From an uncultured Solirubrobacterales bacterium (GTDB lineage: Bacteria > Actinomycetota > Thermoleophilia > Solirubrobacterales > 70-9), in NCBI GenBank assembly GCA_963811375.1, contig CAWEQY010000008.1, forward strand, positions 34,092-98,091: a stretch of DNA of 64,000 nt, read 5' to 3'. The notes under the pieces are model-generated. The model had not been told where the DNA came from. It worked only from the letters and a program-made list of their open reading frames with translations, and did no database searches. Made by a program: the position numbers and the translations under genes. This document shows, one piece after another, positions 3,008 to 23,721 of the stretch. The first letter of the stretch is position 1. Every line of letters starts with the position of its first letter.

Positions 3008-3065
3008 CCGTCCCTTCGCCGCAGGGTAGGCAAGGGCGGCGGCATACCCCGGCCGCCATCTCGTC

Positions 3066-4677: not shown

Positions 4678-4712
4678 TACGCAGAACCGGTCGTCTATAG
4701 GCTTGCTCGCCG

Positions 4713-8921: not shown

Positions 8922-9052
8922 CGGTGCCTCCTCCGCTCGTTGGTCGGGCAACTTAGCGCGCGGGGCCCGTCACACCGCTCGCGTGGCCCAGGCCGTCTGT
9001 CAGCTGCGCGCAGCGTCGCCGGGGGACCTTGCGACGATGCGCCGGCGGCTGC

Positions 9053-9499
9053 TCAATCCGAAGCGGTTGGCGGAGCGATAACCGCCAGGTCAGTGGGTCG
9101 CAGCAGCGCCACCAGGGTCGAGCCGTCGACGATCGCCAGCCCGCCCTTGCGCATCTTTGCCCTCGCACCCGTCAGTCGGGCGACCTCACTGGAGAAGTCG
9201 GGCTCGTGACCGACGAGGAGGACGTCGCCGCGGCCGGTGGCGAGTGCCAGCGAATCGAAGCTGCCTCCGCTCAGCTCGACCGCAGGCTCCGGCTCGATGC
9301 CCAGCGATTCGCAGGCGAGCCGCGCCGTTTCCGCCGCCCGGGCCCTGGGGCTGGTGAGACAGACGTCGATCTCAGCCCCGAGGCCGGCCAGCGCCCGGCC
9401 CGCCGCGCGTGCCTGGCGCTTCCCCTTCGGCGTCAGCCGCCGGGCCGCGTCGTTCCCATCGCCGTCCTCGGCGTCGCCGTGCCGGAGCAGATAGATCAC
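9053..9499 (-). CDS. Histidine phosphatase family protein (SixA-like)
   Basis: LLRHGDAE (RHG catalytic motif), LTPKGKRQA, LLVGHEPD. Confidence 0.8.
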   Translation of the reverse strand: MIYLLRHGDAEDGDGNDAARRLTPKGKRQARAAGRALAGLGAEIDVCLTSPRARAAETARLACESLGIEPEPAVELSGGSFDSLALATGRGDVLLVGHEPDFSSEVARLTGARAKMRKGGLAIVDGSTLVALLRPTDLAVIAPPTASD

Positions 9500-9595
9500 A
9501 TCACGATCCTACGCCCGCAATTTCCGTTTTTTTGGATAAGGATCTTTTAAAAATGGGAGTGCCCGGACCCTTGGGGTCTTTAGCATGCGCCGCTG

Positions 9596-10309
9596 GTGTT
9601 TTCTCGCGCTCATAAAACTCACAGACTGCTCATCGTCGGCCTGGCCCTGGTCGCGTTGCTGTCGCTCCCAAGCGCCGCCTCGCCCGCGGGCCGGATCGTC
9701 GTCTTCGGCACCGACTCCGGCTCGCACCTGAAGGTGACCAGGAGCGGAGGCGACGTCGTGGTCGAGGGGACGATGGCCTCGGCCCGGCCGCAGGGCTGCA
9801 ACCTCACCGCCGGCAACCATGTCGCTGTCTGTCCGATCGCCGGCGCCGGCGGGATCGAAATCGAGATGGGGGCCGGCAACGACTTCGTCGAAGTGCTCGA
9901 CCCACTGCCCTTCACGCTCACCGCCCACCTTGGCGACGGCGAAGACAAGTTCATCGGCAATGCCGAGAAGGACGTCTGCTTCCCCGAGGGATCGAGGCGC
10001 AACCGCTGCATCGGCGAAGGTGGAGACGACGTCTGCATCACCGGCTCCCGCAACAGCGACTGCGTCGGCGGCTCCGGCGACGACTACTGCCGCACGAGCA
10101 CGGGCAGCGACGGCTGCTGGGGCGGCCCCGGCGACGACGTCTGTTACATGGGCCCCGGCCAGGACGGCTGCCACGGCGAAGCCGGCAACGACCGGCTCTA
10201 CGGCGAACACGACCCCGACCAGCTCTACGGCGGCGAAGGTTTCGATTTCTGCGACGGCGGCCCGGGGATGGGCTACTCGCGAGCCTGCGAGGCCGGCCCC
10301 GGCCGCTAG
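9596..10309 (+). CDS. Secreted Cys-rich protein with calcium-binding (RTX-like GGxGxD) repeats
   Basis: GTG at 9596 and signal peptide LLIVGLALVALLSLPSAASPA. The C-terminal repeats are CVGGSGDDYC, CWGGPGDDVC, CHGEAGNDRLYG and LYGGEGFDFC. Confidence 0.6.
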   Translation: MFSRAHKTHRLLIVGLALVALLSLPSAASPAGRIVVFGTDSGSHLKVTRSGGDVVVEGTMASARPQGCNLTAGNHVAVCPIAGAGGIEIEMGAGNDFVEVLDPLPFTLTAHLGDGEDKFIGNAEKDVCFPEGSRRNRCIGEGGDDVCITGSRNSDCVGGSGDDYCRTSTGSDGCWGGPGDDVCYMGPGQDGCHGEAGNDRLYGEHDPDQLYGGEGFDFCDGGPGMGYSRACEAGPGR

Positions 10310-10323
10310 TCGGGCCAGGCTGG

Positions 10324-10360
10324 CCTACAGCCCCATCGTCTTGCCGAGGATCTCCTTCAT
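10324..10360. repeat. attL: left copy of the 37-bp direct repeat flanking the island
   Basis: cctacagccccatcgtcttgccgaggatctccttcat is identical base-for-base at 10324..10360 and 20958..20994. The flanking bases differ on both sides. Confidence 0.85.
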
Positions 10361-10654
10361 GAAGCCCGACCGTGGAAGCTCCGGACCACAAGGGACGTTC
10401 GAGGACATTAATCCCTTGCAAATCGAATTCTTCTGCCGTGACGACGGATGACGGGAGTGACCGCGAGCTAGGGGTGCTGCGTGTCGGAATTGTGTCCGCT
10501 CCTCGCTACGCCGGTCGAGCATCCAGAACTTGGCTAGAGGGACAGGGCGGCCAGGTTCTCAGGCGATCGGCCGGGTCGACTCCAGGTCGCAGGGAGTTGA
10601 GGGACCGACTCCCGTTTCGCGGATCTTGGGAGCCGCGGATATTTTAGGACTGAG

Positions 10655-13645
10655 ATGGGCAAGGGTGCACGGCTACGCGCTGAACGTCGCGGCGAGCAGG
10701 CGCTTCAGGAAAACCTGGAGGGGCTGCTCGAGGCGGTCTCCGAGACGAGAAACGCAGAGGGCATTGCCGAGCTCGTCCAGGAGCGCCCCGAGCTTTTCGC
10801 CCCGGAGGTGCTGGCCCACATTGAAACTGCTCGGGATCTGCCCCACGCAGGCCCCTACCTCGAGCCGATCGGCATGCTTGTGCGCTTCGCGCCAGAAAAT
10901 CCCGAGCGCGCCTGGGAGGCCTACACAGAGGCCCGCGATCTGCTCCAAAGCGCCTTGACGGCAATCGAGCCGCGCTCCGAGGAGCTTGGCTCGATGCTCG
11001 ATCAGCGCCGCTACGACGAGGCGATCGAGGTCGGAGAGGAGGTGCTTTCTCAGGCATTCGCCGACGGCCTCGGACTGGTGGTGATCGAGACCCGAGAGCG
11101 CCTGGTGACCGCCTACCGGAACGCCGAAGGCGGCGACCGGGCTGAGAACATCGAGAAGGCGATCGGTCACGTAGACGAGGTCGTGCAGGCGACGCCGGCG
11201 CCTGACCGGGCCGGCGCGATGATGAATTTCGCCGTCCTGGTCAGCATGCGGCTTAAAGGCGACCCGGCCGAAAACTTCGAGATCGGCGTCGGCGTGCTTC
11301 GCGACGCCCTGGAGGAAGCAAGGCGTGCCGACGATCCGAAAACCACCGCCACGAGCGAGATGAACCTGGCCCGCACGCTTCAGGTGCGCCAGCGCGGCGA
11401 GAAAATCGACAACCTGATCGAGGCTCGCGATCTCTGCCGCCGCTCGCTCACCTTCCGAACGCTTGAGCGTGATCCTGTCGACTGGGCCTACAGCATGCTT
11501 AACCTCGGCGGGATCGAGAACGACCTGATCCCACTCGGCGCAGCCGAAGTCGGCGACGCCGAAGGCCCGCTGCTCGAGTTGATCGAGGCCGGAGAGCAGG
11601 TCGAGGAGAAGTGGCTCCTCGGCTTTGCCCACTCCTCGCTCGGGGCGGTGCACCGTGACGAGGCCCGACGAATACAGCATGCAAGCGAACGGGTCAGCGT
11701 CGGCCCGGGCCGCCCTACGCCGCCGGAGGGGGAGGAGGCCGGACGCCTCGGGCTCGCCCGCCAGCACCTTGAGAGTGGCCTTGGGCTTCTCGACCCGGCC
11801 CGCAACCCCGACACGGTCGGGCGCACCTTGGCTGATCTGGCCGAAGTAGCTGATCACTTCGAGGACGAGGATGAAGCGATCGCTCTCTACCGGACCGCCG
11901 TAGCCCACGTCGACGCCCGACTCGAACCGCGCCTCGCCCGGGATGCAGGCGGACGACTCGGTCACCTGCTCGCCCAGAATGGCGAGTGGGACGATGCCGC
12001 CGCAGCCTTCACGAAGGCCGTCGAAGGGGCCGAGCTGGCGTTTCACGCCCGCTTTGCCACCGCCGACCGAATCGATGAGGGAGAGCGCTCAGGCAATCTC
12101 CCGCGCTGGGCGGCGATCACCATTGCCCGCGCCGGCGACCTAGAGAAAGCGCTTCTCGTCCTGGAGAACGGTCGCACCCGGGAGCTGCGTCGGCGCCTCG
12201 GCGTCGGCAAGGGCGAGTTGGAACTGCTGCCCGATGATGCTCGCGAGGACTACGAAGCCGCGCAGGCGAGCCTTGCCGCGCTGCCGCTCGGCGCCGACTC
12301 CCACGAGGCGGCCTACGTCCTGCAGAGGGTGGTCGCCGCGATTCGGGAGATTCCCGGACGCGAAGAGTTCGGGACCGGCTTCGCCCTCGCCGACGTCTCA
12401 GGCGCGGTCGAGGAGGGTTGTCCGCTTCTCTATGTCGACCCGAGCCCCTACGGAACCATGCTCCTCGCCGCTCACCGTACCGGCGGCGAGGTCCATCTGG
12501 AGACCACGTTCCTTGAGCGGCCGATCGCCTTCGAGGTGCTGATGCACTCGGCTCTCGGTGATTACGAGAGGCTCTTTCGCGAACCGCAGAATCCAGGGGA
12601 GTCGGCTGGATACCTGGCCGCTCTCTCGAACCCCGATTCCGACCCTGATCACCTCGACCGCGCTCTCGTCTATCTGACGGCAACCCTCGGGGAGACCTTG
12701 GCTAAGCCGATCGCCCAGTTCCTAACCAAGCTCGGCGCGGCGAAGGCGACGCTTGTCCTCTGCGGGCCCTTGGCCTTCGCGCCGGTGCACGCGTTCCGGT
12801 GGGAGGAGGATGGCGTGGAGGTCGCGCTCCTCGAGCGCTTCGAGTTGCGCATCGCCCCTTCGGCCACCCTCCAGGGCGCCAGCATCGAACGCGCGGCTGA
12901 GCGCGGCGAGCGCGGGGTCTCCCTGGCGGCGCTCGGAGACCCAGACCTCGACGATCCGGAACTCGACCTGCCGGCGGCGGGCGCCGAGGTGGAAGAAATT
13001 GCAGAGCTCTTTGCCAGGGATTCCCGCGAGTGCGCGTTTCGCGCCGAGGCGACTAGCGCGTTCTTGGAGCGCACCGCCCCTAGCGCATCGCACGTCCACC
13101 TCGCCTGCCACGGCAGCGGCTCCCTTTTCTCTTCGGATGAGAGCGAAGAGCCGCGCATCTACCTCGCCGACCGCGAGGTGACCGGCTCAGAGCTCGTCAC
13201 CCTGGGATTGTCCGCCGACCTCACGGTAATTTCTGCGTGCGAGACGGCTGTTTCCTCGCTTGGCTTTCAGGCTCACGAGGCCCTGTCGTTGGGAGCGGCA
13301 TTTCTCGCCGCCGGCAGTTCGGTCGCCGTTGCAAGCCTGTGGACTGTCGACGACATCGCTACCGCGATGCTGATGGCCCGCTTCTATAGAGAGATGTTCG
13401 AGTCGGGCACCTCGCCGGCCGCCGCGCTGCGCTCAGCCCAGCTCTGGCTTCGCGACCTTGACGAGGATGAAGAGCAGGAATTCCTGGTCGCGCATCCGGA
13501 AATCGAGGAGGCCTATCGCACGCGTGAGCAGGCTGGCGATCGGCCCGGAAGAAGAGGCGCGGCGGGCGCTGGAGCGGTGGTGGCCGACAGGCCTTACGCC
13601 TCACCCGAGTTCTGGGCACCATTCATTTGCTTCGGCGCCGGTTAG
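10655..13645 (+). CDS. TPR-like repeat / CHAT-domain (caspase-like) protease
   Basis: ATG at 10655. The N-terminal ~650 aa are helical-repeat. The C-terminal CHAT domain has a His (SHVHLACHGSG) and Cys (LTVISACETAVSS) dyad and the VASLWTVDDIATAMLMARFY block. Confidence 0.85.
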   Translation: MGKGARLRAERRGEQALQENLEGLLEAVSETRNAEGIAELVQERPELFAPEVLAHIETARDLPHAGPYLEPIGMLVRFAPENPERAWEAYTEARDLLQSALTAIEPRSEELGSMLDQRRYDEAIEVGEEVLSQAFADGLGLVVIETRERLVTAYRNAEGGDRAENIEKAIGHVDEVVQATPAPDRAGAMMNFAVLVSMRLKGDPAENFEIGVGVLRDALEEARRADDPKTTATSEMNLARTLQVRQRGEKIDNLIEARDLCRRSLTFRTLERDPVDWAYSMLNLGGIENDLIPLGAAEVGDAEGPLLELIEAGEQVEEKWLLGFAHSSLGAVHRDEARRIQHASERVSVGPGRPTPPEGEEAGRLGLARQHLESGLGLLDPARNPDTVGRTLADLAEVADHFEDEDEAIALYRTAVAHVDARLEPRLARDAGGRLGHLLAQNGEWDDAAAAFTKAVEGAELAFHARFATADRIDEGERSGNLPRWAAITIARAGDLEKALLVLENGRTRELRRRLGVGKGELELLPDDAREDYEAAQASLAALPLGADSHEAAYVLQRVVAAIREIPGREEFGTGFALADVSGAVEEGCPLLYVDPSPYGTMLLAAHRTGGEVHLETTFLERPIAFEVLMHSALGDYERLFREPQNPGESAGYLAALSNPDSDPDHLDRALVYLTATLGETLAKPIAQFLTKLGAAKATLVLCGPLAFAPVHAFRWEEDGVEVALLERFELRIAPSATLQGASIERAAERGERGVSLAALGDPDLDDPELDLPAAGAEVEEIAELFARDSRECAFRAEATSAFLERTAPSASHVHLACHGSGSLFSSDESEEPRIYLADREVTGSELVTLGLSADLTVISACETAVSSLGFQAHEALSLGAAFLAAGSSVAVASLWTVDDIATAMLMARFYREMFESGTSPAAALRSAQLWLRDLDEDEEQEFLVAHPEIEEAYRTREQAGDRPGRRGAAGAGAVVADRPYASPEFWAPFICFGAG

Positions 13646-13802
13646 TAGGGCCTCGCCTTCGGTTGGTGGGCTCCGAACCGGGCCGTCGGCTGCGATGTGA
13701 CCACGGGGTCTAATCAGCAGAGGCCAGAGTGGAGATGACGGACGCCGATGCCGAGGATCTAAGCCGTGATCTCGTCATTAGAGAAAATGCTGGAAGAAGT
13801 CC

Positions 13803-13828
13803 CTGCAAAGCGGGGGGTCGCTTTGCAG
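13803..13828. terminator. Perfect 10-bp stem / 6-nt loop hairpin between the CHAT gene and the RT operon (possible bidirectional terminator)
   Basis: ctgcaaagcg-gggggt-cgctttgcag. On the minus strand it is followed by a moderately U-rich tract (GGACUUCUUCCAGCAUUUUCUC). Confidence 0.35.
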
Positions 13829-13933
13829 AAATAGATCCTCAAAGGGCCCGCCGAGGAAACGGATCTGACGTGTCCGGATTGTGCCTCTGAGTCGCTCCCT
13901 AGATCATAAAAAACACCCAAATGCAGGGGAAAA

Positions 13934-13969
13934 TCAAAGTCCAAATTGCTTACTGACGATCTCCTTCAT
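13934..13969 (-). pseudogene. Orphan 3' end of an acyl-CoA dehydrogenase-like gene (MKEIVSKQFGL-stop): degenerate internal att-like junction
   Basis: The minus strand reads atgaaggagatcgtcagtaagcaatttggactttga. This compares with MKEILGKTMGL-stop encoded by the 37-bp repeat. gatctccttcat is identical to the inner end of the repeat, and the adjacent arm resembles the arm right of attL. Confidence 0.5.
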
Positions 13970-14146
13970 GAGTTCCGAGCGTGGGACGGGTGGGCACACG
14001 GGATCGTCGGAGGGCAAAGAATCGCCGCAAATGGCTCTCTTTGAGGACGAGGGGGATGATCCGGCGTGGTCGCCCAGGGACCCATAGATATGTCCGTTTT
14101 GTGTTGGCCGATGATGGTTTCGCCCAACGCCTCGGTCGGGGATTGC

Positions 14147-15670
14147 TCAGATCTTTGACCAGCCGAAGGGTTCGCCTCTCAAGGACTTAGCGAGTCGAGC
14201 CAGACTGCGTCCCTCACTCGACCAGCTACTAAAGCGGCCGTCTCGCTCCGGCGCGTTCTTTTCTTGGATAGCTACAAGGGCATACGAAAGCCATGGACGC
14301 GGCGCCTTCGAGAAGAAGTGATCCGCCGCCGAAAAGTCGTGTTCATCCGACTGGCTACCCCAAGCCAAAAGCGCGCGAGCGCGGACCAACGGATGGTCGT
14401 GCTTGATCGCGAGCTCCGCGACTCGGCCAGAAAGTGCTTTCGCTCCACGCGCGGGGATGACTTGAATGGCGCGAAGAATATGAAGCCACTCCTGAGTTCG
14501 GTGAAAACGGTCCGACGTGATGTTGGCCAGGGCAGAAGCAACCTCCTCCCTGTGGTCGCTAGTCGCTAGCGACTCTAGGTACCGACAGGCGGCCGCAGTC
14601 AGGCCAGGCATGCGAAGCAAAACCTGTGGCAGTGCATTGATGGCATGGGGGTGCTTCTCGCGCGCGAGATGTCGAAGCGCGAAGGTGAACTCATTCCGAC
14701 GATATTCATCGTTGCCGAGCGCGTGAACTGCATCGTCGAAAATCGCGCAGACACGATCAAGGCGGATCTCGTCGATCTGATCATCGTCAGGCGCATATTC
14801 ACCCTCCTGCAACTCAGCCAATAGTTGCTCGACCCCCTCTTGCGGGGTCAGCCGGGACAGAACCCGCTCGGATCTCCGGATCCTGGTCTTACCACCCCCG
14901 AGGCTCAAGCCGTCTTCGTACAGCAGCTCCTCGATTCTGTCTAGAAGTTGCCTAGCTTCATGGTGGGTCGGGCAGCTGATTGCTATGTCGTCCATGTATC
15001 GAACGAACGGAACGCCTTCGGCGCGAAGTAGCTCATCGAGTGGGGAGAGGTAAAAGTTCGCCAGGGATGAGGAAGGAGGACTCCCCTGTGGCAGCCCTCG
15101 CACGCCCTGGGCTGCCCATCCGGACAGGAGGCCGCCAAGATCAGTGACCACGCTGCCGTCGCACCCAGCTTCTAGTAGCCGGCGCTCAAGTTGGCTCACG
15201 CTGATGTTTAAGAAGAAACTCGCCACATCAGCTTCGATGACATAGCCGTCGAAAGCATCAAACGCAATCTGATGAAGTGCAATGTTGTAATCAACCCATC
15301 GAGGTGAATCTGCAAATGGGTCGTCCTCGCTAAGCGGGGAAAGCCGATAAGCGAAGACCTCCTCGCGAGACCCCAAGGCATTCTCTATCGGGGTCTTCAT
15401 GGCGTCCACCAAGGCTTGATACAGCAGCATGTCGCGTGGATGGACTCGGACAAACGGGCGAACCGTTGCTTGCCCAGGCTTGGTGGCGGGAACGCGCTGG
15501 ACGCCTTGCACTTGGTGGTTGTTGCAGAGAGCGGGGGAGGAACCCCAGAACCTCGCCGCTACCTCGAACGGCAGCCGATCTGGCACATCCATAATTCCCC
15601 CGCGAACCCGATGCAGAACCCGTTGCCACGACCGATCGATACGCAGTTGATCTAGTGATTTCAGATGCAT
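14147..15670 (-). CDS. Reverse transcriptase with C-terminal HEAT-like helical-repeat domain (UG/Abi- or DRT-like, unclassified)
   Basis: Palm motifs are KPGQATVRPFVRVHPRDMLLYQAL, YVIEADVASFF, RGLPQGSPPSSSLANFYLSPLD, FVRYMDDIAISC (YMDD at 14987..14998) and LSLGGGKTRI. The C-terminal ~200 aa are helical and end in the HEAT/PBS-like HPLVRARALLAWG. An alternative ATG at 15592 follows GGGGGA. Confidence 0.85.
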   Translation of the reverse strand: MHLKSLDQLRIDRSWQRVLHRVRGGIMDVPDRLPFEVAARFWGSSPALCNNHQVQGVQRVPATKPGQATVRPFVRVHPRDMLLYQALVDAMKTPIENALGSREEVFAYRLSPLSEDDPFADSPRWVDYNIALHQIAFDAFDGYVIEADVASFFLNISVSQLERRLLEAGCDGSVVTDLGGLLSGWAAQGVRGLPQGSPPSSSLANFYLSPLDELLRAEGVPFVRYMDDIAISCPTHHEARQLLDRIEELLYEDGLSLGGGKTRIRRSERVLSRLTPQEGVEQLLAELQEGEYAPDDDQIDEIRLDRVCAIFDDAVHALGNDEYRRNEFTFALRHLAREKHPHAINALPQVLLRMPGLTAAACRYLESLATSDHREEVASALANITSDRFHRTQEWLHILRAIQVIPARGAKALSGRVAELAIKHDHPLVRARALLAWGSQSDEHDFSAADHFFSKAPRPWLSYALVAIQEKNAPERDGRFSSWSSEGRSLARLAKSLRGEPFGWSKI

Positions 15671-15690
15671 GAACAGATGTGATTGAGAGT

Positions 15691-15741
15691 GTCGCCCCGC
15701 CCGGACTGTTTAGTCCTGATCCTGGATAGGCCGGGTGCGAC
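15691..15741 (-). other. GC-rich compound stem-loop inside the 88-nt ATPase-RT spacer (candidate RNA element)
   Basis: Minus-strand RNA is GUCGCACCCGG...CCGGGCGGGGCGAC (outer imperfect stem) enclosing GGACU-AAAC-AGUCC. No U-tract follows it, and no Shine-Dalgarno precedes the RT ATG at 15670. Confidence 0.3.
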
Positions 15742-15758
15742 GGATTGCGCTTTAGGAT

Positions 15759-17429
15759 CTAGCCAAACAAGCGAAGGGGGGCATCATCCGGCTCATCTTC
15801 GGTTGATTCAACGATCTCAATGGCCTCCTCGGCCCGGACATCGCCTTCTTGGGCGATGATCCCAGCCGCGCGCTTGAGGTCGTAGACAGGCGCCTCACGA
15901 AGCTTCACTCTGCGACGTTGATCATCGGTTTCCCAGAAGCGGACGATCTCGATGTTGCGCTTTCTTGGCTCCATGAAGAGCGCAAAGTCCAACGTATATG
16001 CCTCGTAACGACCGGGCCTCCCAGACGCGGCGCTCGTGCTGGGATCGACCAGGTGAATCAACTTGAAGTCCATAAGCTGCTGCATCAACTCGTGCGCGTC
16101 GGCATATGCCGCTTTCTGTTCTAGCGGCACCAAAAAAGCCGTCTTGCGCTTCTCCGTCAGGCAAAACTTGACGACGTCAACAAATAGCGCTTCAAGAGCA
16201 GGAACCTCACTTCCCGCGTCCGTCCGGAGATCCTTGAGCTTCGTCTCGTTGCTCAGTGCTGCCGCAGCTCGGCGCAGATCCGTCGGAGTGAGATTCTTTC
16301 TCTTAGGGGTTCGCGCGGCCCGGTCTAGCCCTCCCACGAAGATGTTGAGATAGTCGCGAGGCACGCCCCCAGAAAGCAACACGAGATCCTTGCTGGCTTC
16401 TTCACTCATGATTGAAAGCACGTCCTCCTCGATGCCGACTTGCTTTCCAAGTTCCCGCAGCATCGTTCCGAGATACGCCCCGGTTTGCCCCAGATCTTCG
16501 AGGGTTTGATCGAGGTTGAAGCCGTCCACGTCTTGCTGAATCTGGATTCCTATATGCAGCGGGGTAGTCTCAAGGAGCCGGGTTCTGTGGCGTACCGTTC
16601 CAACCTTGAAATAGAGATCGGTGTCCCGTAGAAGTCGATGAATGTAGTCGATCACATTTGGCTGCACGCCTGAGTCGATTAGATAGAAGTCATCAATGAT
16701 GAACACAGCGAACTCAGCACTGGATTCCTCGATGCGATCCTGGATCACGGACTTGTAATCCGGGAGGCGGTTCTCGATCTCTCGGACCTTTCGCTCGTCG
16801 CTTTCCCGGACTTCTTGGGTGCTTTCACTGCTGGATTGCTCTGAGTCGAGGCTTCCGCCGATCCCTTTGGTTCCGACGGTGGCCCCTGCGCTGTCCTTAA
16901 GGCCTGATGCAGCGTCTTTCGTGACCTTGAGTTTCGAAGCGCTTGGAAGGGAAAGGAGGCCCTTGAGTTCCTTCACCACCTCTTGGACTGGATCGGACTC
17001 ACTGAACAGCCTGGCCTTCAAACGCTTTCCTGCGGACCGCTTTGGAAGCCCTTGAAAAATGGCGAGCAGAAGGCGGAGCAATACATCCGGATATTCCAAG
17101 GTCTTGATGGTGTCCGCGAGGATGTACGCCGAGTGAACGTTTTCCTCGGGCGCTACTTTGTGCCGGTAGTACACGAGGAGGCAGGACTTTCCGCTTCCCC
17201 GGCGACCAAAGACAATCTGATGCTGCCTAAGGGCAATACGGTCGAGATTGCCGGCGACATCCACGTAGACGGGCGTTCTGTTGTCGCGGACGCGAAAGCT
17301 CTCCCGAATTAGCCTTTCGAGCTTTTTCAGTCGCTTATCGTCTAGCTGGATCTCGTTTCCCTCTGCCATTCCGGATAAGGCTATTCGAGCGATTTTCATT
17401 TGGGTCCGTATGGAGTTCTCAAGGGTCAT
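15759..17429 (-). CDS. ORC/Cdc6-like AAA+ P-loop ATPase with C-terminal winged-helix-like region and acidic tail
   Basis: Walker A GRRGSGKS (17184..17207), Walker B FAVFIIDDFY, sensor-2-like SGGVPRDYLNIF. The ATG at 17429 overlaps the upstream HTH gene by 11 nt (ATGACCCTTGA). The ORF track starts at TTG 17438. Confidence 0.8.
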   Translation of the reverse strand: MTLENSIRTQMKIARIALSGMAEGNEIQLDDKRLKKLERLIRESFRVRDNRTPVYVDVAGNLDRIALRQHQIVFGRRGSGKSCLLVYYRHKVAPEENVHSAYILADTIKTLEYPDVLLRLLLAIFQGLPKRSAGKRLKARLFSESDPVQEVVKELKGLLSLPSASKLKVTKDAASGLKDSAGATVGTKGIGGSLDSEQSSSESTQEVRESDERKVREIENRLPDYKSVIQDRIEESSAEFAVFIIDDFYLIDSGVQPNVIDYIHRLLRDTDLYFKVGTVRHRTRLLETTPLHIGIQIQQDVDGFNLDQTLEDLGQTGAYLGTMLRELGKQVGIEEDVLSIMSEEASKDLVLLSGGVPRDYLNIFVGGLDRAARTPKRKNLTPTDLRRAAAALSNETKLKDLRTDAGSEVPALEALFVDVVKFCLTEKRKTAFLVPLEQKAAYADAHELMQQLMDFKLIHLVDPSTSAASGRPGRYEAYTLDFALFMEPRKRNIEIVRFWETDDQRRRVKLREAPVYDLKRAAGIIAQEGDVRAEEAIEIVESTEDEPDDAPLRLFG

Positions 17430-17655
17430 GCCTGTCAACGAGCTTTCCTAGCTCGCCCATCGAGACGCCGAGGGCCACGGCGATCCCTTTGATCGTGCTC
17501 CAAGTGGGGTTTGCCTGGCCGCGCTCGATCAGAGACAGGGTGCCGGTCGTAATGTCGGCGTCGTGGGCTAAATCTTCCTGGGTGAGGCCATGCTTGGCAC
17601 GAAGTTGGCGGATTGCTTCGCCAAGAGCAGGCTGTGGTTGTTCGGAGCGGCGCAT
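17419..17655 (-). CDS. XRE-family helix-turn-helix transcriptional regulator
   Basis: 78 aa with LRAKHGLTQEDLAHDADITTGTLSLIERGQANPTWSTIKGIAVALGVS. It is the first gene of the HTH-ATPase-RT operon. Confidence 0.85.
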   Translation of the reverse strand: MRRSEQPQPALGEAIRQLRAKHGLTQEDLAHDADITTGTLSLIERGQANPTWSTIKGIAVALGVSMGELGKLVDRHDP

Positions 17656-17672
17656 TTGAACACGTTTTCAAA
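17655..17672. promoter_or_regulatory. Near-palindrome abutting the HTH start codon (candidate operator)
   Basis: tttgaacacgttttcaaa has TTTGAA/TTCAAA arms. The AT-rich 150-bp divergent region also has GCTAGAGC (17687..17694) and its complement GCTCTAGC (17731..17738). Confidence 0.3.
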
Positions 17673-17804
17673 CGCGAGCGTCATGGGCTAGAGCATAAAT
17701 AGCTAGCGTTATGTGCTTAGTCCTTGGTAGGCTCTAGCTATCCCAGAAAAGCGCCCCCGCGCTGCGCAAACAGCCGGGGGCATGGCACAGGAGGGTTAGC
17801 TCCC

Positions 17805-18101
17805 ATGCACGACAAGCCTATTGGCGCTGGCGATGATGGCCACGCCTCGACCGCCGCCCAGGATCTTCACGACCAGGGCGTGGTCCTGATCCAAATCCTG
17901 ACGATCTACCCGACGCATCTGCGCCTCTTGGAGCTGGTGCGCGAGATCGGCGCCGGATCGGCCGACTTCTCCGAGAGGGACCGCATCGAACGCGCTGTCC
18001 GCGATCTGATCGGAGTGGGCCTGCTGTTCCGCAGCGACGGGCTCGTATTGCCGACGCGGGCGGCACTCCGCTTCAACGAGATCCTCGGGGAGGGGATGTA
18101 G
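17805..18101 (+). CDS. Small hypothetical protein (possibly winged-helix-like)
   Basis: ORF 17724..18101 is trimmed to the ATG at 17805 (MHDKPIGAGDD...). It lies 2 nt upstream of the next gene. No firm motif recognised. Confidence 0.4.
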   Translation: MHDKPIGAGDDGHASTAAQDLHDQGVVLIQILTIYPTHLRLLELVREIGAGSADFSERDRIERAVRDLIGVGLLFRSDGLVLPTRAALRFNEILGEGM

Positions 18102-18103
18102 CG

Positions 18104-18427
18104 ATGGGGCGCAACGCAGGCCTGCAACGCGAGCAGTTCGCCCGCTGCTTCGGGATCAATCTCGCCAAGGCGCGCGGTGCAGCGGATGTGAGCCAGGACG
18201 AGCTTGCCTTCCGGACCTCGACCCACCGCACGGCGATCAACCAGATCGAGCGCGGCCTGTCCCTGCCGGGCCTCGACTCGGCGATGAGGTTCGCGGCGGC
18301 GCTGGAAACGTCGCTGGATGAATTGGTCGCGGGAATCGAATGGCAGTCGCCAGAGATGCAAATAGGCAAATTCAAAATTCCAGATCCAGAAGAAAATGAG
18401 CCACTACGAACCAGTAGCGAACGATGA
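18104..18427 (+). CDS. XRE-family helix-turn-helix protein
   Basis: DVSQDELAFRTSTHRTAINQIERGLSLPGLDSAMRFAAALETSLDELV. Confidence 0.7.
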   Translation: MGRNAGLQREQFARCFGINLAKARGAADVSQDELAFRTSTHRTAINQIERGLSLPGLDSAMRFAAALETSLDELVAGIEWQSPEMQIGKFKIPDPEENEPLRTSSER

Positions 18428-18758
18428 GCCAGCCAAGAGGCAGCTGCCAGGTCGAAGCCCATCTGTCAGCCCCTCAGGCAGCTACCCAGAGCCCCTACCT
18501 AGCACCCAACCTCAACCCCCGACACACTAGAGACTGGGTTCCCGTGCCCCTCTTCGAGCAGCGTCCAATGACCGGCTTAGCGTCCTCGGCGCGACGGGCT
18601 GACACGACATTTGATGTCGCCCAAGAGGCTGACCGACGGGTCTTGTCGCTCGTCGCGTTCGAGGACCGATGGCGTGACCTGATAGGAGCGTGCAAGAGCC
18701 CCACCCAGTTCTGTCCGCCGTCGATCCGTGACCGCAAGCCACTCCCCGAGGAGCGCCA

Positions 18759-19198
18759 TTGATCACGATCGGCATCGATCCCCACAAGCAAACCAACACC
18801 GCAGTGGCCGCCTCTGACGTCGGCCGCCAGCTCGCCGAGATCACCGTCCCGGCCGACGAGGCCGGCCAGCAGGAGCTGCTCGCCTGGGCCCACGGCCTCG
18901 GCGTCGAGATCCGCTTCGCCCTGGAGGACTGCCGCCACGTCAACGGTCGCCTGGAGCGCTTCCTGACCGCCACCGCTTCGACCGTCACGGCAACCGCCAG
19001 CTGAACGCGGCCTTCTACCGGATCGCCCTGACCCAGGCCCGCGTTCACCCGGGCGCTCGCGCCTACCTGGCCAAGAAGCGCGAGGAGGGCAAGAGCACCG
19101 CCGAAGCGCTGCGTTGCCTCAAGCGCCTGCTGGTCCGCGTCGTCTGGCGGACACTCAGAAGCACCGGTGAGCCCCGCCTTTCTACCTCTCCCTCTTGA
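18759..19198 (+). pseudogene. IS110-family transposase remnant (internal deletion plus frameshift)
   Basis: The N-terminal DEDD block is ITIGIDPHKQTNTAVAAS...LLAWAHGLGVEIRFALEDC (frame 0, stop at 19002). The C-terminal block is RQLNAAFYRIALTQARVHPGARAYLAKKREEGKSTAEALRCLKRLLVRVVWRTL (frame 2, stop at 19196..19198). The roughly 200 central residues are missing. Confidence 0.7.
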
Positions 19199-19493
19199 TC
19201 TTGGAGGGGGAGATCCTTGACACCGTTGGCTCACATAGGAGAGACCCTCCGGATTCGTGCCTGAGCCGCGGCTTGTTGATTCAGAACGTTGGCAAGGTTC
19301 AGCAGCGTTGCTCGTGGCGATCTCGCCCGGGGGACCGGAGTCCCGATTTTGGCACGGCTCCGCCGTGCGGTCGGGCTCCTATGTCCCCTGGTGGAGGGGT
19401 CGCGCAGTGAAGGCGTTGGTGCGTCGGGCTCTCTCTCCTTTCAAAAGCAGGCGATGCATTTCTCGTCTTCGATGGACAGCCAATGCAGAGGAA

Positions 19494-19793
19494 ATGCACG
19501 ACGGCTCCGACACCGAATTCGAGCGGCTTCTGTCCCCAGAGGACGTTGCCCGCGTCTGCGGACTCTCCCGGCGTGCCGTCTATCGGGCGATTGCGCGGGG
19601 GGAGCTTCGAGCCGTGCGAATCTGCCACAGGCTGCGAATCCGTCCAGCGGAGTTGGAGCGCTGGATTGGTGGCCAGGTGAGTTCTTCGGAGTTCCGCAGC
19701 CCCAGACGGCGCAACCGACCTGTTGCCGTTGCTCCGCGTGGCAGCTTGCGGTCGATGCTCAATGAGGCCGACGGCCAAGGCGGCAGTCAGTGA
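19494..19793 (+). CDS. xis: Excisionase-type HTH DNA-binding protein
   Basis: The ORF is trimmed to the ATG at 19494. The sequence LLSPEDVARVCGLSRRAVYRAIARGELRAVRICHRLRIRPAELERWI is excisionase-type. Its stop overlaps the integrase GTG (GTGA at 19790..19793). Confidence 0.7.
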   Translation: MHDGSDTEFERLLSPEDVARVCGLSRRAVYRAIARGELRAVRICHRLRIRPAELERWIGGQVSSSEFRSPRRRNRPVAVAPRGSLRSMLNEADGQGGSQ

Positions 19794-21073
19794 GTGTCGA
19801 GAGGATCGAGCGGAAGGGTGGGGCCGTATGGCGGGTGCGCTGGCGCGATGAGCAGGGGCAGGCGCATTCCAAAGTGATCGGTCGCAAGCGCGACGCGGAA
19901 ACCTTCGACGCCGAAGTCCTGCGACGCAAGCGAACCGGAGATCTCGACCTGCTCACCGGGGGCAGCGAAACGCTCGCCGACTTTGCGGAGGAGTGGTGGA
20001 AGCTGTACGCGGTTCCGAACTTGGCAAGTCGCACGCTGCGCGGCTACGCGGGGCTTTGGGATCGGCACGTCCTGCCGCGACTCGGCGCAATGCGCCTCAA
20101 CGCGATCACTGTCGAGGCGGTCGAGCGCTACCGGGCAGAACTGGAAGGCGACGGCGTTGGGCAGCCGACCATCTATCGAGCGCTGGCGCTGCTTCAGGGC
20201 GTCCTGCGGCGAGCGGTCGAGTGGCGACGGATAGGCCACAACCCGGTCAAGTCTGTCCGGAAGCCGAACGTCCGTCGCCAGCGCGAGGTCCGGCCGGTCC
20301 CTCCCTTCACAGTCGAGCGGCTGCGAGCCGTCGCCGTCGAAAGGCGTAAGCACGGTCCTCGCGATGCCGTCCTGATCGGACTACTCGCCTACGCCGGTCT
20401 GCGACCACAGGAGGCGCTGGTGCTGCGCTGGTCGGACGTGCGTGAGCGGACGCTCTTGGTCGAGAAGGCCGCAGACGGTCAGGGCGGGGTCAAGACGACG
20501 AAGACCGGGCAGGCGCGCACCGTTCGGCTCCTTGCCCCACTCGCCGGTGACTTGACCGAGTGGCGGCTCCTGGGTGGTGAGCCTGACGACGAGGCGCTCC
20601 TTTTCCCAAACGGCAAAGGAGGCATCTGGAATGACCCGGCTTGGCAGACCTGGCATCGCGACTCCTGGCGGCCCGCCTGTCGAGCGATCAGCCTGGAGGG
20701 TGCTCGTCCCTACGACTTGCGCCACAGCTTCGTCTCGTTGCTGATCAGCGAAGGTCGCAGCGTGGTCGACGTGGCCCGCCAAGCCGGACACTCGCCAACC
20801 ATGACGCTCGACGTTTACGCGCACGTCTTCGATGAGTTCGACATCGCCGAGCGGGTGTCTGCCGAGGATCAGATCGAGCAGGCGCGGCGCGATGTGTCCG
20901 AATCGTGTCCGCCTGACGCGGAAGATGGGGTGGAGGGGCAGGAAATCCCCGCTAATCCCTACAGCCCCATCGTCTTGCCGAGGATCTCCTTCATCACCTC
21001 GTCGGTGCCGCCGCCGATCGGGCCGAGGCGGGCATCGCGGACGGCGCGCTCGATGCCGTACTCGCGCATGTAG
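19790..21073 (+). CDS. int: Tyrosine recombinase / integrase (reading frame runs through attR)
   Basis: An N-terminal SAM-like domain is followed by catalytic blocks ARTVRLL, YDLRHSFVSLLI and GHSPTMTLDVYAHV (R..HxxR..H..Y). There is no stop before 21073, so the last ~38 codons lie in the att core and in antisense host DNA. Confidence 0.85.
   Translation: MSVERIERKGGAVWRVRWRDEQGQAHSKVIGRKRDAETFDAEVLRRKRTGDLDLLTGGSETLADFAEEWWKLYAVPNLASRTLRGYAGLWDRHVLPRLGAMRLNAITVEAVERYRAELEGDGVGQPTIYRALALLQGVLRRAVEWRRIGHNPVKSVRKPNVRRQREVRPVPPFTVERLRAVAVERRKHGPRDAVLIGLLAYAGLRPQEALVLRWSDVRERTLLVEKAADGQGGVKTTKTGQARTVRLLAPLAGDLTEWRLLGGEPDDEALLFPNGKGGIWNDPAWQTWHRDSWRPACRAISLEGARPYDLRHSFVSLLISEGRSVVDVARQAGHSPTMTLDVYAHVFDEFDIAERVSAEDQIEQARRDVSESCPPDAEDGVEGQEIPANPYSPIVLPRISFITSSVPPPIGPRRASRTARSMPYSRM
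20958..20994. repeat. attR: right copy of the 37-bp direct repeat
   Basis: Identical to 10324..10360. It covers 1 nt plus the stop codon plus the last 11 codons (MKEILGKTMGL) of the acyl-CoA dehydrogenase at 20959..22137. Confidence 0.85.
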
Positions 21074-22137
21074 CCATAGCCGCCATGAATCTGCAGGGCC
21101 TGGTCGGCGATCTCGAGCAGGGCTCGCTGAGTGACCAGCTTGGTCATGCTGACCTCGCGGATGCACTCCTGGCCGCTGTGGAAGAGGCGCAGGGAGTTGT
21201 AGGTGAGAGCGCGGGCGGCTTCGGCTTGGGTCGCCATCTCGGCGACTTGGTGGCGGATCGCCTGGAACTTGCCGATCGGGCGGCCGAAAGCTTCGCGCTC
21301 CTGCGCGTAGGCGACGGTGGTCTCGATCAGACGCTGCATGCCGCCGATCGCGCCGATCGCCATCAGCAGCCGCTCCCAGGCGAAGTTGGCCATGATCAGC
21401 TTGAAGCCGCCGTTCTCCTCGCCGAGCAGGTTCTCCGCCGGCACCTCGACGTCGGTGAAGGCCAGCTCGCCGGTGTCGGAGGAGTGCCAGCCCATCTTCT
21501 CCAGCTTCGCCGCCACCTCGTAGCCGGGCATCTCGCGCTCGAGGACGAGGAAGGAGATGCCGCCGTGGCCGCCCTCCTCGTTCGTCTTGCAGGCGCAGAC
21601 GAGGAAGTCGGCGCGGACGCCGTTGGTAATGAAGGTCTTGGCGCCGTTGACGATGTAGGCGTCGCCGTCGCGGCGGGCGGTGGTGGTGATGCCGGCGACG
21701 TCGGAGCCGGCGCCGGGCTCGGTGATGCCGAGGGCGCCGATCTTCTCGCCGGCGATCCCCGGCACCAGCCAGCGCTGCTTCTGCTCCTCGGTGCCGAAGT
21801 TGAAGATCGGCGGCATCGCGATCGAGGCATGGGCGTTGAGCCCGGCGGCAACGCCGCCCGAGCCGCCGGAGCGGGCCAGCTCTTCGACCCAGATCGCGTC
21901 GTGCAGATGGGTGCCGCCCTGGCCACCGAGCTCCTCGGGGAACTTGAGCCCGAGGAAGCCCAGCTCGGCGCAGCGCCCGTACAGCTCGCGCGGGAATTCC
22001 CGCGCCTCCTCCCACTCGTCGACGTGCGGCGCGATCTCCTTCGTGACGAAGCGGCTGACGGTCTCCCGCAGCTCCTCGTGCTCCTCGCCGAAGGGGGGGA
22101 GTGGGCGTCGTTGTCCCGTGTCTTTGATGACCGTCAT
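20959..22137 (-). CDS. Acyl-CoA dehydrogenase
   Basis: 392 aa with LGITEPGAGSDVAG, KTFITNG, FGRPIGKFQAIRHQVAEM and GGYGYMREYGIERAVRDARL. Confidence 0.9.
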   Translation of the reverse strand: MTVIKDTGQRRPLPPFGEEHEELRETVSRFVTKEIAPHVDEWEEAREFPRELYGRCAELGFLGLKFPEELGGQGGTHLHDAIWVEELARSGGSGGVAAGLNAHASIAMPPIFNFGTEEQKQRWLVPGIAGEKIGALGITEPGAGSDVAGITTTARRDGDAYIVNGAKTFITNGVRADFLVCACKTNEEGGHGGISFLVLEREMPGYEVAAKLEKMGWHSSDTGELAFTDVEVPAENLLGEENGGFKLIMANFAWERLLMAIGAIGGMQRLIETTVAYAQEREAFGRPIGKFQAIRHQVAEMATQAEAARALTYNSLRLFHSGQECIREVSMTKLVTQRALLEIADQALQIHGGYGYMREYGIERAVRDARLGPIGGGTDEVMKEILGKTMGL

Positions 22138-22400: not shown

Positions 22401-23615
22401 CTAAAGCCCGTAGCTCTTGCCGATCACGTCGAGCATGACCTCGTCGGTGCCGGCGCCGATGCGGTTGAGGCGGACGTCGCGGTAGGCACGCTCGATCTCG
22501 TACTCCTTCATGTAGCCGTAGCCGCCGAGGATCTGGATGCACTCGTCGGCCACTTCGCAGGCGATCCGCGAGGAGAAGAGCTTGGCCATGGTGATCTCGC
22601 GCACCGGGTACTCGCCGTTGCCGAAGCGCCAGGCGGTCGCGTAGGTGAACTGCTTCGCCGCCTCGGTCTTGGTCGCCATCTCGGCGAACTTGTGGCGGAT
22701 CGCCTGGAACTTGCCGATCGGGCGGCCGAAGGCTTCGCGCTCCTTGGCGTACTCGAGGGTCTTCTCGATCATCCGTTCGCAGCCGGCGTGGGAGCCGGCG
22801 GCGGCGACCAGGCGCTCGCCCTGGAGCTCCCAGGCGATGTGGTAGAAGCCTTTGCCGACCTCGCCGAGCACGGCGCTGGCCGGGACGCGGACGTCTTCGA
22901 AGGCCAGCTCGCCGGTGTCCGAGGCGTGCATGCCCATCTTCTCCAGCTCGGCGGAGACGGTGAAGCCGGGGACCGTGTCGCCGTTCTCGTCGCGCAGGTC
23001 GACGACGAAGAGGGTGATGCCGGCGTGACGCTCGTCGGGGTCGGTCTTGCAGACGAGGACGATGAAGTCCGCCCGCGGGCCGTTGGTGATGAAGGTCTTG
23101 GAGCCGTTGATGACGTATTCGTCGCCGTCGCGGATCGCCGTCGTGCGGATGCCGGCGACGTCGGAGCCGGCGCCCGGCTCGGTGATGCCCAGGGAGCCGA
23201 CCTTTTCGCCCTTCAGGCCCGGTTCGAGGTACTTCTTCTTCTGCTCCTCGGTGCCGAGCAGGTGGATCGGGGGCAGGACCATGTCGCTCTGGACCGCGAA
23301 GCCCATATTGGTGCCGCCGGAGCCGGAGTAGCTCATGCACTCGGCGCGGACCAGCGAGTAGAAGTAGTCGCCGCCCTGGCCGCCGTACTCCTCCGGGAAG
23401 CAGAGGCCGAGAAAGCCGAGCTCGCCCGCCCGTTGCATCGCCGAGGTCGGCCAGTAGGTGTCCTCCCACTCGTTGCGGTGCGGCCACAGCTCCTTCTTCA
23501 CCCACGACTCCATCGACTCGCGCAGGTCTTCGTGCTCCTGGCTGAAGATGAAGTGCTTGCGCCCGGCTGCATGGTCGGGCTTGATGACGCTGGAGCCGTT
23601 GGTCGCGGTCGCCAC
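22401..23615 (-). CDS. Acyl-CoA dehydrogenase (second paralogue)
   Basis: LGITEPGAGSDVAG, KTFITNG, FGRPIGKFQAIRHKFAEM and GGYGYMKEYEIERAYRDVRL. The start is set at GTG 23615 behind GGAGAG; the ORF track starts at 23690. Confidence 0.9.
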   Translation of the reverse strand: MATATNGSSVIKPDHAAGRKHFIFSQEHEDLRESMESWVKKELWPHRNEWEDTYWPTSAMQRAGELGFLGLCFPEEYGGQGGDYFYSLVRAECMSYSGSGGTNMGFAVQSDMVLPPIHLLGTEEQKKKYLEPGLKGEKVGSLGITEPGAGSDVAGIRTTAIRDGDEYVINGSKTFITNGPRADFIVLVCKTDPDERHAGITLFVVDLRDENGDTVPGFTVSAELEKMGMHASDTGELAFEDVRVPASAVLGEVGKGFYHIAWELQGERLVAAAGSHAGCERMIEKTLEYAKEREAFGRPIGKFQAIRHKFAEMATKTEAAKQFTYATAWRFGNGEYPVREITMAKLFSSRIACEVADECIQILGGYGYMKEYEIERAYRDVRLNRIGAGTDEVMLDVIGKSYGL

Positions 23616-23721
23616 TGGTGTCTCTCCTCGTTCGCGGGATCGGGAGGCGGCAGCGGCCGCCGGAAGCGAGTAGACAGTAGCACTTCTCACTTTCGATGAA
23701 AGTCGGCTATGGTGGCGCTCG

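Follow-up and report, generated by a model that had tools for sequence, protein, structure and literature searches.

The reverse transcriptases (RTs) of the UG/Abi (DRT) group that come closest to the enzyme studied here form two sets. By sequence profile they are UG22, UG21 and UG7 (DRT8), in which some 200 aa of helical repeats come after an RT palm that carries Y(M)DD, and whose genes lie in mobile or defence islands. UG22 has been reported in association with a HEPN-like neighbor (cluster 79 of Mestre et al., PMC9226505). By fold they are DRT4 (UG15), DRT6, Abi-P2 and AbiK, which share a single-gene organization and an RT/helical-repeat architecture. DRT4 is a single-gene system whose ssDNA is protein-primed and template-independent (PMC12783706), and catalysis of untemplated synthesis by Class 1 DRTs is described in a further source (PMC13174585). 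The closest described ATPases are the Sll1717-family P-loop proteins (Pfam ORC-CDC6-like, PF24389; NCBIfam NF047389), with an AAA+ core, then lid and winged helix, and with ORC4 and archaeal Orc1/Cdc6 as best fold matches. BrxC, BrxD and DUF499, found in defence contexts, belong to the same AAA+ ORC/Cdc6 clade and continue into a wHTH; they are large (BrxC has 1200-1300 residues) or set in conserved multi-gene operons (PMC12839542).

The window, as we call the whole stretch of 64,000 nucleotides that was analyzed, carries three ORFs of interest, all on the minus strand, as the preliminary description had placed them. They encode an XRE-family HTH repressor (17419..17655; 78 aa; Pfam HTH_3, 2.3e-14), an ORC/Cdc6-fold AAA+ ATPase (15759..17438; 559 aa counted from TTG) and an RT with a C-terminal alpha-helical repeat domain (14147..15670; 507 aa; Pfam RVT_1, 4.3e-16). 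The likely start of the ATPase is the ATG at 17429, and the overlap of 11 nt between this ATG and the HTH stop, already pointed out in the earlier reading, is found within ATGACCCTTGA. Between ATPase and RT lies a spacer on the same strand (15671..15758) that had been called an 88-nt structured spacer. The length stands; the G+C-rich hairpin within it (-25.6 kcal/mol) is modestly significant (z = -1.95; an equally good fold arises in 9 of 200 shuffles). A search of the spacer gave no terminator-like site and no T-run, and the two genes are probably co-transcribed in the window. That they are co-directional, 88 nt apart and with no terminator detected between them speaks against their independence, as does the low G+C of the cargo region, which they have in common. 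The AT-richer block noted before is real: G+C over 14-18 kb is 56-59%, compared with 65-73% in the backbone. On the other side of the XRE gene, a divergent intergenic region of 68 nt (17656..17723) separates the operon from an opposing plus-strand unit composed of an uncharacterized ORF (orf125, 17724..18101) and a second XRE-family HTH gene (18104..18427; HTH_3, 5e-11). This region presumably serves as the regulatory switch, through which the XRE protein would repress the cargo operon; no sigma-70-type consensus was found in it.

The RT is a UG/Abi enzyme with a helical-repeat tail, as first proposed. Its YMDD (residues 225-228) computes to 14987..14998, the position given previously. The best PADLOC profile is RT_UG22 (1.9e-54, 183 bits), followed by Drt8/UG7 (3.9e-50, 170 bits) and RT_UG21 (1.4e-49, 167 bits), and the matches cover nearly the whole profile. 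On these profiles of about 480 positions the scores come to about 170-185 bits and the three groups are nearly tied, which points to a sister or divergent lineage outside the core of each group. The lineage itself is already catalogued, in the UG22/UG21/UG7 neighborhood of the Class 1 UG/Abi RTs (Mestre et al. 2022, PMC9226505). Members of the window RT family come mainly from Solirubrobacterales and Conexibacter. The AF2 model (pLDDT 91.1) finds DRT4 as its best full-length Foldseek match (9vdv_A, 5.6e-10, TM 0.55/0.56), and UG15, DRT6, Abi-P2 and AbiK are matched over the full length as well; these top matches range from 5.6e-10 to 5e-8, at a TM of about 0.55 across some 500 columns. Sequence identity to DRT4, DRT6, Abi-P2 and AbiK is just 10-16%, and the protein is no Drt4 member, with 44.9 bits against the NCBIfam Drt4 cutoff of 450. 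Tyr108 is kept in 19 of the 23 members of the family. It precedes the catalytic DD by about 119 residues, comparable to the 115 by which Tyr125 precedes D240 in DRT4.

Foldseek likewise bears out the ORC/Cdc6 fold and winged helix claimed for the ATPase. The model (AF2 pLDDT 85.5) matches ORC4 (7e-8) and Orc1/Cdc6 (1.6e-7) best, and is that of a catalytically competent enzyme whose C-terminal part has a winged helix, a conserved motif and an acidic tail. Walker A GRRGSGKS (residues 78-85) falls at 17184..17207, exactly where it had been located. Together with Walker B IIDDFY and the sensor-2 arginine it forms the core common to the window protein and the PF24389/NF047389 group, and these three elements do not vary in 46 relatives. 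Many of the relatives have a precomputed PF24389 match, whereas the window protein stays just below both curated cutoffs (26.3 bits where the PF24389 gathering threshold is 27, and 41 where NF047389 requires 75). It differs from ORC/Cdc6 by a long helical insert (residues ~150-240) and by the strongly conserved C-terminal motif TSAASGRPGRYEAYTLDF...EPR.RNIEIV.FW. The family comprises 1511 clusters at 50% identity, nearly all of them proteins of ~500-560 aa, and it appears to be horizontally transferred. Compared with BrxC, BrxD and DUF499, its members are solitary proteins of ~530 aa without a conserved partner.

The two genes are not neighbors elsewhere. Fourteen distinct RT loci, at 35-77% identity and for the most part flanked by 7-8 kb of sequence, have no ATPase relative in the vicinity, and 87 ATPase loci (33-79% identity) have no RT relative; among 84 of the latter that were counted, 37 extend 1.6 kb or more downstream. 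Both negatives stand at a tblastn threshold of E<=0.01, and an HMM of the RT palm gave no match either. Many ATPase contigs are short. Clustering of the flanking ORFs gave no recurrent neighbor for either gene, and a Pfam scan of 143 ATPase-neighbor ORFs returned 131 different families, each in at most 3 ORFs. The RT is monocistronic between opposite-strand genes at three loci (L002, L004, L100), and so is the ATPase at three others (L006, L008, L103). Most ATPase relatives are solitary and away from integrase, XRE and other mobile-element genes; L006 and L008 sit between metabolic genes. Since ATPase and RT are never neighbors in the other genomes examined, the likeliest reading is that of two separate modules of one gene each.

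The two genes most likely lie at the cargo end of a mobile island that encodes a tyrosine integrase and has inserted into a gene for acyl-CoA dehydrogenase, at its 3' end. This gene end (coding for ...MKEILGKTMGL) makes up att copy 1, a 37-nt sequence at 20958..20994 that is the left boundary of element A and is repeated perfectly, as a direct repeat, at 10324..10360 (att copy 3, where the composite island ends on the right). A degenerate third copy with 65% identity (13933..13969) marks the junction of element A, which holds ATPase and RT, and element B, which holds a CHAT gene. The same 37-nt sequence is found again at the island boundaries of two sister loci, L005 and L099, and the stretch that flanks the degenerate copy (13948..14110) is homologous to their att-adjacent island tails. 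The integrase (19790..21073, plus strand; Pfam Phage_integrase 6.6e-14, Phage_int_SAM_3) is syntenic with that of L005 and is directly preceded by an excisionase-like HTH_17 protein (19257..19793, plus strand; Pfam HTH_17 3.8e-12). The preliminary description had put the RT genes in an integrase island beside a CHAT protease. Both are present, but the TPR-CHAT protease gene (10655..13645, plus strand; Pfam CHAT 1.4e-48 and TPR matches) lies between att copies 10324-10360 and 13933-13969; it is therefore the sole cargo of a separate tandem element, B, outside the HTH-ATPase-RT segment.

Sister islands that occupy this att site in the acyl-CoA dehydrogenase gene carry one gene or the other. L005 reads HTH-ATPase-88aa-PIN without RT, L099 reads HTH-RT-DUF6414-PIN and L105 reads HTH-RT-91aa-PDC-S21, the last two without ATPase; the window XRE HTH is 82%, 81% and 82% identical to their respective copies. 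The nearest relatives of each gene (77-79% identity) are in this same island type, and there the other gene is missing. At the DNA level, homology between L005 and L099 stops ~10 nt short of the HTH stop codon, the point at which the ATPase starts in the window, and homology between the window and L099 picks up again at the RT start. Cargo is thus exchanged as modules behind a constant head: one XRE gene precedes ATPase alone (L005), RT alone (L099, L105) or both (window), which settles the question of one system in the negative. The sister islands cannot be polarized, and HTH-ATPase-RT could be the ancestral order, with independent losses in L005, L099 and L105.

The single ATPase-dependent RT system under XRE control that had been proposed thus fails on adjacency, a point on which the earlier reading itself had said that it could be refuted: adjacency is not conserved (0 of 14 RT loci, 0 of 87 ATPase loci). 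A cooperative defence system of XRE, ATPase and RT, newly assembled in the window lineage or ancestral with losses, in which the ATPase senses or loads invader DNA and gates or targets the RT, would account for the shared strand, the start/stop overlap, the terminator-free spacer and the cargo region's uniformly low G+C. Class 1 UG/Abi RTs can indeed be multi-gene systems (Mestre et al., PMC9226505), and 355 nt downstream of one RT relative (L001), in the same orientation, lies a gene for an NTPase of another kind, a NACHT protein. We nevertheless consider such a system very unlikely, given the partnerless closest relatives in the same island type, the solitary occurrences of both genes, the XRE that heads either gene alone and the single-gene nature of the RT's nearest structural relatives (PMC12783706). 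Slightly less probable still is that the RT is a canonical UG22 with an unrecognized HEPN-like partner, or is templated by an ncRNA as DRT2, DRT3 and DRT9 are. RT_UG22 is the best PADLOC profile in 23/23 family members tested, UG22 has its reported HEPN-like neighbor, and the spacer has its hairpin. But neither a HEPN-like partner nor the PD-(D/E)XK partner of a UG7 variant stands beside any of the 14 RT relatives, whose loci have no common neighbor even at blastp E<=1e-3; the near-tie of profiles argues against core UG22; the spacer has no Rfam match, upstream leaders compared across 13 loci show no conservation, and the hairpin barely beats shuffled sequence. By Foldseek the fold is also nearer to the untemplated Class 1 enzymes than to DRT2 or DRT9.

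The ATPase might instead act in island maintenance, replication initiation or target selection (ORC/DnaA/TnsC-like) under the XRE switch, leaving the RT as the sole defence cargo. TnsC is among the Foldseek matches to its ORC/Cdc6 and winged-helix fold, the gene stands directly behind the switch with start/stop overlap in the window, L005 and L019, no PADLOC profile matches it, and the model shows no effector domain. This role is unlikely, however: most relatives are solitary and away from mobile-element genes, the same island backbone does without the ATPase in L099 and L105, and the family is nearly missing from annotated plasmids (2 distant matches) and phages (1 distant match). Our best guess for the ATPase, a tentative one, is a stand-alone anti-invader or defence function, in which it would probably bind DNA in an ATP-dependent manner.

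We therefore favor, with good though not full confidence, a backbone XRE that heads a variable cargo slot, filled in the window by two functionally independent single-gene modules adjacent by chance. Co-transcription, and hence functional interplay of ATPase and RT, may occur in the window lineage alone. By analogy with DRT4/UG15, DRT6, Abi-P2 and AbiK, the RT would probably work alone as a homo-oligomer, and the ssDNA that it makes would be untemplated and protein-primed. Tyr108, a putative counterpart of DRT4 Tyr125, is the candidate for the priming residue. As suggested by its closest structural relatives, a phage factor that stabilizes this ssDNA would then lead to abortive infection.

The three co-directional minus-strand genes lie in the window as the preliminary description had them, and their coordinates, motifs and 88-nt spacer are all recovered. 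An XRE helix-turn-helix (HTH) protein of 78 aa (17419..17655; Pfam HTH_3 2.3e-14) is followed by a P-loop ATPase (15759..17438), whose ATG (17429) and the HTH stop codon overlap in ATGACCCTTGA, and by a 507-aa reverse transcriptase (RT; 14147..15670). The Walker A motif GRRGSGKS (ATPase residues 78-85) computes to 17184..17207 and the YMDD of the RT (residues 225-228) to 14987..14998. The flanking TPR-CHAT gene (10655..13645, plus strand) and integrase gene (19790..21073) are likewise borne out. The spacer between ATPase and RT (15671..15758), which had been called structured, does contain a G+C-rich hairpin, but this folds barely better than its shuffles (z = -1.95; 9 of 200 shuffles fold equally well), and the hairpin has no T-run. 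A scan of 13600-18500 for sigma-70-type promoters returned none; such a scan is uninformative for a high-G+C actinobacterium. We infer that the 68-nt divergent region at 17656..17723 is where the XRE protein acts to repress the cargo operon.

As a three-gene system, the arrangement is not conserved. Protein searches gave 121 relatives of the RT and more than 569 of the ATPase, and loci were fetched for 18 RT relatives (14 of them distinct, at 35-77% identity, most with flanks of 7-8 kb) and for 87 ATPase relatives (33-79% identity). The ATPase-RT adjacency, on whose conservation in other genomes the preliminary description had staked its reading, is found in none of the 14 distinct RT loci and in none of the 87 ATPase loci (tblastn, E ≤ 0.01), with sequence downstream of the ATPase reaching at least 1 kb in 45 and at least 1.6 kb in 37 of the 84 loci counted; many metagenomic contigs are short. 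An RT-palm HMM run against the ATPase loci revealed no RT of any related kind. Clustering of the flanking ORFs by blastp gave no recurrent neighbour for either gene, and among 143 ORFs beside ATPase relatives a Pfam scan recognized 131 families, none of them in more than three ORFs. Each gene is also seen alone between genes of the opposite strand, the RT at three loci (L002, L004 and L100) and the ATPase at three others (L006, L008 and L103). At one further locus (L001), a 758-aa NACHT (STAND) NTPase (8879-11155, plus strand) is encoded on the same strand as an RT relative of 63% identity, 355 nt downstream of it; this is a single instance beside the RT family and probably represents another independent defence gene.

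The decisive comparison is with the sister islands. Syntenic islands at the same acyl-CoA dehydrogenase gene, with the same backbone, are present on the metagenomic contigs L005, L019 and L099. The island of L005 carries the closest relative of the ATPase (79% identity) and reads att, integrase, HTH, HTH, ATPase, an 88-aa ORF, a PIN toxin-antitoxin and att, with no RT. That of L099 carries the closest relative of the RT (77% identity) and reads att, HTH, RT, DUF6414, a PIN toxin-antitoxin and att, with no ATPase. A further sister island, L105, presents HTH, RT (73% identical), a 91-aa ORF and DUF4917, again with no ATPase. The HTH protein is 81-82% identical among the window, L005, L099 and L105. 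The DNA homology of L005 and L099 (89.5%) stops some 10 nt short of the HTH stop codon, the position at which the ATPase starts in the window, and the homology of the window and L099 restarts at the RT start. The shared HTH and these breakpoints argue that the XRE gene is part of the island backbone and heads a variable slot that holds the ATPase alone, the RT alone, or both; the cargo is exchanged in modular fashion. With no co-occurrence elsewhere and one gene or the other in the sister islands, the proposal that HTH, ATPase and RT form one system is not supported. The DUF4917 protein of L105 (2774-3790, plus strand), encoded just downstream of the RT relative, matches the PADLOC single-gene candidate PDC-S21 at 1e-112, which shows that the cargo slot gathers stand-alone defence candidates. 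A comparison of positions 1-810 of L099 with 2420-5488 of L005 shows that two genes standing between att and XRE in L005, those of the integrase and of a 154-aa HTH protein, are missing from L099. The island of L099 resembles a remnant, immobilised but with its XRE-RT cargo retained, of this same island.

A perfect 37-nt direct repeat (10324-10360 and 20958-20994), which copies the 3' end of an acyl-CoA dehydrogenase gene, marks the two ends of the island in the window. Two paralogous acyl-CoA dehydrogenase genes stand in tandem on the minus strand (20959-22137 and 22401-23690), of which the nearer provides the att site; on the other side, just outside the island, is the gene of an RTX-type calcium-binding repeat protein (9596-10309, plus strand). 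As in integrative islands of the tyrosine-recombinase type, the integrase gene adjoins a repeat of the 3' end of its target gene, and the composition (G+C of 56-59% at 14-18 kb) is unlike that of the backbone (65-73%). A third, degenerate att-like copy (13933-13969, 65% identity) makes the island composite, and the three copies imply that two elements accreted in tandem at the acyl-CoA dehydrogenase 3' end. One element comprises the integrase, an Xis-like HTH_17 protein, an IS110 fragment, a second XRE, the first XRE, the ATPase and the RT; the other is att-bounded and has the TPR-CHAT gene as its only cargo. The IS110-family transposase fragment (18759-19004, plus strand; 81 N-terminal aa; Pfam DEDD_Tnp_IS110, 27.4 bits with the gathering threshold at 29) sits between the XRE unit and the Xis-like gene and is probably a decayed insertion sequence. 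In the island of L005, too, att is present in three copies, and the second element there encodes a LeoA-like GTPase.

The RT is indeed of the UG/Abi (DRT) type with an alpha-helical tail. Its palm is recognized by Pfam RVT_1 (4.3e-16), D227 and D228 of the YMDD are invariant among 23 relatives, and in the AlphaFold2 model (pLDDT 91.1, pTM 0.89) the palm is followed by an all-helical domain at residues 296-499, where the Pfam HEAT_2 match is sub-threshold (17.7 bits). Among the PADLOC profiles RT_UG22 scores best (1.9e-54, 183.5 bits), followed by Drt8/UG7 (3.9e-50, 169.6 bits) and RT_UG21 (1.4e-49, 167.2 bits), each covered over near its full length; UG22, Drt8, UG21, UG23 and UG20 together span 1e-54 to 1e-40. 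Retron and CRISPR RT profiles reach only 1e-15 or weaker, and the NCBIfam group II intron RT profile gives 70 bits with its cutoff at 300, in agreement with the earlier view that the RT belongs to none of these types. UG22 is the top profile in 23 of 23 aligned family members, but by a narrow margin over UG21 and Drt8. Since the three scores lie so close together, and are modest given profile lengths of ~480 positions, the family is put in the UG22/UG21/UG7 neighbourhood and not assigned to the core of a single group. Profile comparison thus places it, as a predicted affinity, among the Class 1 UG/Abi RTs of Mestre et al. 2022 (PMC9226505), who regarded the part played by UG22 and UG21 in defence as "inconclusive". 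UG22 is reported by them to be accompanied by a HEPN-like protein (cluster 79), whereas the 14 distinct RT loci have no shared neighbour (blastp, E ≤ 1e-3), and at many of them the RT is flanked on either side by genes of the opposite strand. Variant 1 of DRT8 (UG7) has a PD-(D/E)XK nuclease as partner, whereas the family of the window RT has no recurrent one; variant 2 of DRT8 is also without a partner, so this absence alone is not decisive, and the Drt8 profile is second best for the window RT, not best. Plasmid and phage collections gave matches at the level of the RT palm only. The RT adds a member, and possibly a sister lineage, to a class of RTs that is already catalogued.

When the full-length RT model was compared with the PDB by Foldseek, the best match was DRT4 (9vdv_A; 5.6e-10, TM 0.55/0.56), with UG15, DRT6, Abi-P2 and AbiK as the other top matches. 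The NCBIfam profile of DRT4 (UG15), NF041749, scores the window RT at 44.9 bits (cutoff 450), which is below membership; the similarity of the modelled fold supports an RT that may work like DRT4, not one that belongs to it. DRT4 is a single-gene system that needs no template to make random ssDNA, with Tyr125 as the priming residue, and a phage DNA-binding protein that shields this ssDNA sets off toxicity; the same protein activates DRT6 as well (PMC12783706). Untemplated synthesis is reported to be general to Class 1 DRTs (PMC13174585). Because DRT4 is the closest structural relative and Class 1 DRTs are untemplated, we propose that the window RT would share the chemistry of DRT4, namely template-independent, protein-primed ssDNA synthesis, an analogy drawn from relatives that share only 10-16% sequence identity. 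By the same analogy Y108, which is kept in 19 of 23 family members and lies ~119 residues ahead of the DD motif, is the candidate priming residue. Rfam found no RNA match (E ≤ 1) over 9800-21300, and the aligned upstream leaders of 13 RT loci show no conservation (mean column identity 36%), both of which are consistent with template independence.

The ATPase is of the ORC/Cdc6 type with a winged helix, as the preliminary description had proposed. Its AlphaFold2 model (pLDDT 85.5, pTM 0.81) comprises an AAA+ core, a lid and a C-terminal winged helix, and the top 15 Foldseek matches are human, fly and yeast ORC subunits and archaeal Orc1/Cdc6 (7e-8 to 6e-6). Walker A (G78-S85), D249 and D250 of Walker B and the arginine of SGGVPRD (R361) are invariant in 46 sequences. 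The protein is a probable member of a Pfam family that is already on record but uncharacterised: PF24389 (ORC-CDC6-like) gives 26.3 bits (gathering threshold 27) in a match limited to residues 58-96, and many relatives at 45-80% identity have a precomputed PF24389 match. The NCBIfam Sll1717-family profile (NF047389) scores 41 bits, below its cutoff of 75. The family amounts to 1511 clusters at 50% identity, 352 of these at E ≤ 1e-30, and nearly all members have 500-560 aa. Members from Actinomycetota, Bacteroidota, Proteobacteria and Chloroflexota are 45-48% identical to the window ATPase, and a C-terminal motif, TSAASGRPGRYEAYTLDF...EPR.RNIEIV.FW, is invariant in the window protein and in relatives across phyla (P0076, P0079, P0083, P0090 and P0101); these features suggest strong constraint plus horizontal transfer. 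Restriction-modification, AbiEii, integrase and transposase genes are occasional neighbours, together with many housekeeping genes. Annotated plasmids and phages hold very few relatives, all of them distant (23-28% identity); the one in Bradyrhizobium phage ppBdUSDA122-1 is 27% identical over 51% of the query. One metagenomic contig (L024) has two inverted head-to-head copies (2412-3752 and 3877-5217), each 61% identical to the window protein, which may reflect either a genuine inverted duplication or a hairpin-type artefact of assembly. A sequence search of the PDB gave a P-loop match only (8bns, E = 0.03), PADLOC nothing meaningful (mad8, E = 0.0096) and PHROGs no match; no paper was found on the Sll1717 family, and a paper on ORC-CDC6-like proteins treats BREX components, not this family. 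As an AAA+ protein with a winged helix, the ATPase probably is active and binds DNA; no effector domain is visible in it.

The close spacing of ATPase and RT, with no terminator between them, would suit a cooperative pair, recently assembled and lineage-specific, in which the ORC/Cdc6-like DNA-loading ATPase directs or licenses an untemplated Class 1 polymerase under XRE control, and the pattern of the sister islands could reflect losses from an HTH-ATPase-RT ancestor. If this were true, a new multi-gene defence system would have been caught at birth in the island cargo slot. However, the census is without any co-occurrence, RT and ATPase are each self-sufficient in other genomes, and the structural relatives of the RT act alone; we regard such a pair as improbable. 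A canonical UG22 + HEPN system, or an RT templated by an ncRNA, has an even slimmer chance, as neither a conserved neighbour nor a conserved leader is seen. More probable than the ATPase-RT pair is that the solitary ORC/Cdc6-like ATPases (~1500 clusters in several phyla, probably horizontally transferred) constitute an uncharacterised single-gene anti-invader system. That the window ATPase acts stand-alone against invaders is favoured, though only tentatively, and its main rival is an island-maintenance or initiator-like factor.

The trio fails as a new RT defence system and is probably not a functional unit, and the effort of cloning it is spared. What it provides is a clean natural example of an integrative-island defence slot, in which single-gene modules (an ORC-like ATPase, a Class 1 RT, DUF6414, PDC-S21 and a PIN toxin-antitoxin) are swapped behind one conserved XRE regulator. 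It also singles out an actinobacterial, Solirubrobacterales-centred lineage of Class 1 UG/Abi RTs near UG22/UG21/UG7, and attention is drawn to a large, multi-phylum family of solitary ORC/Cdc6-fold ATPases without known function.
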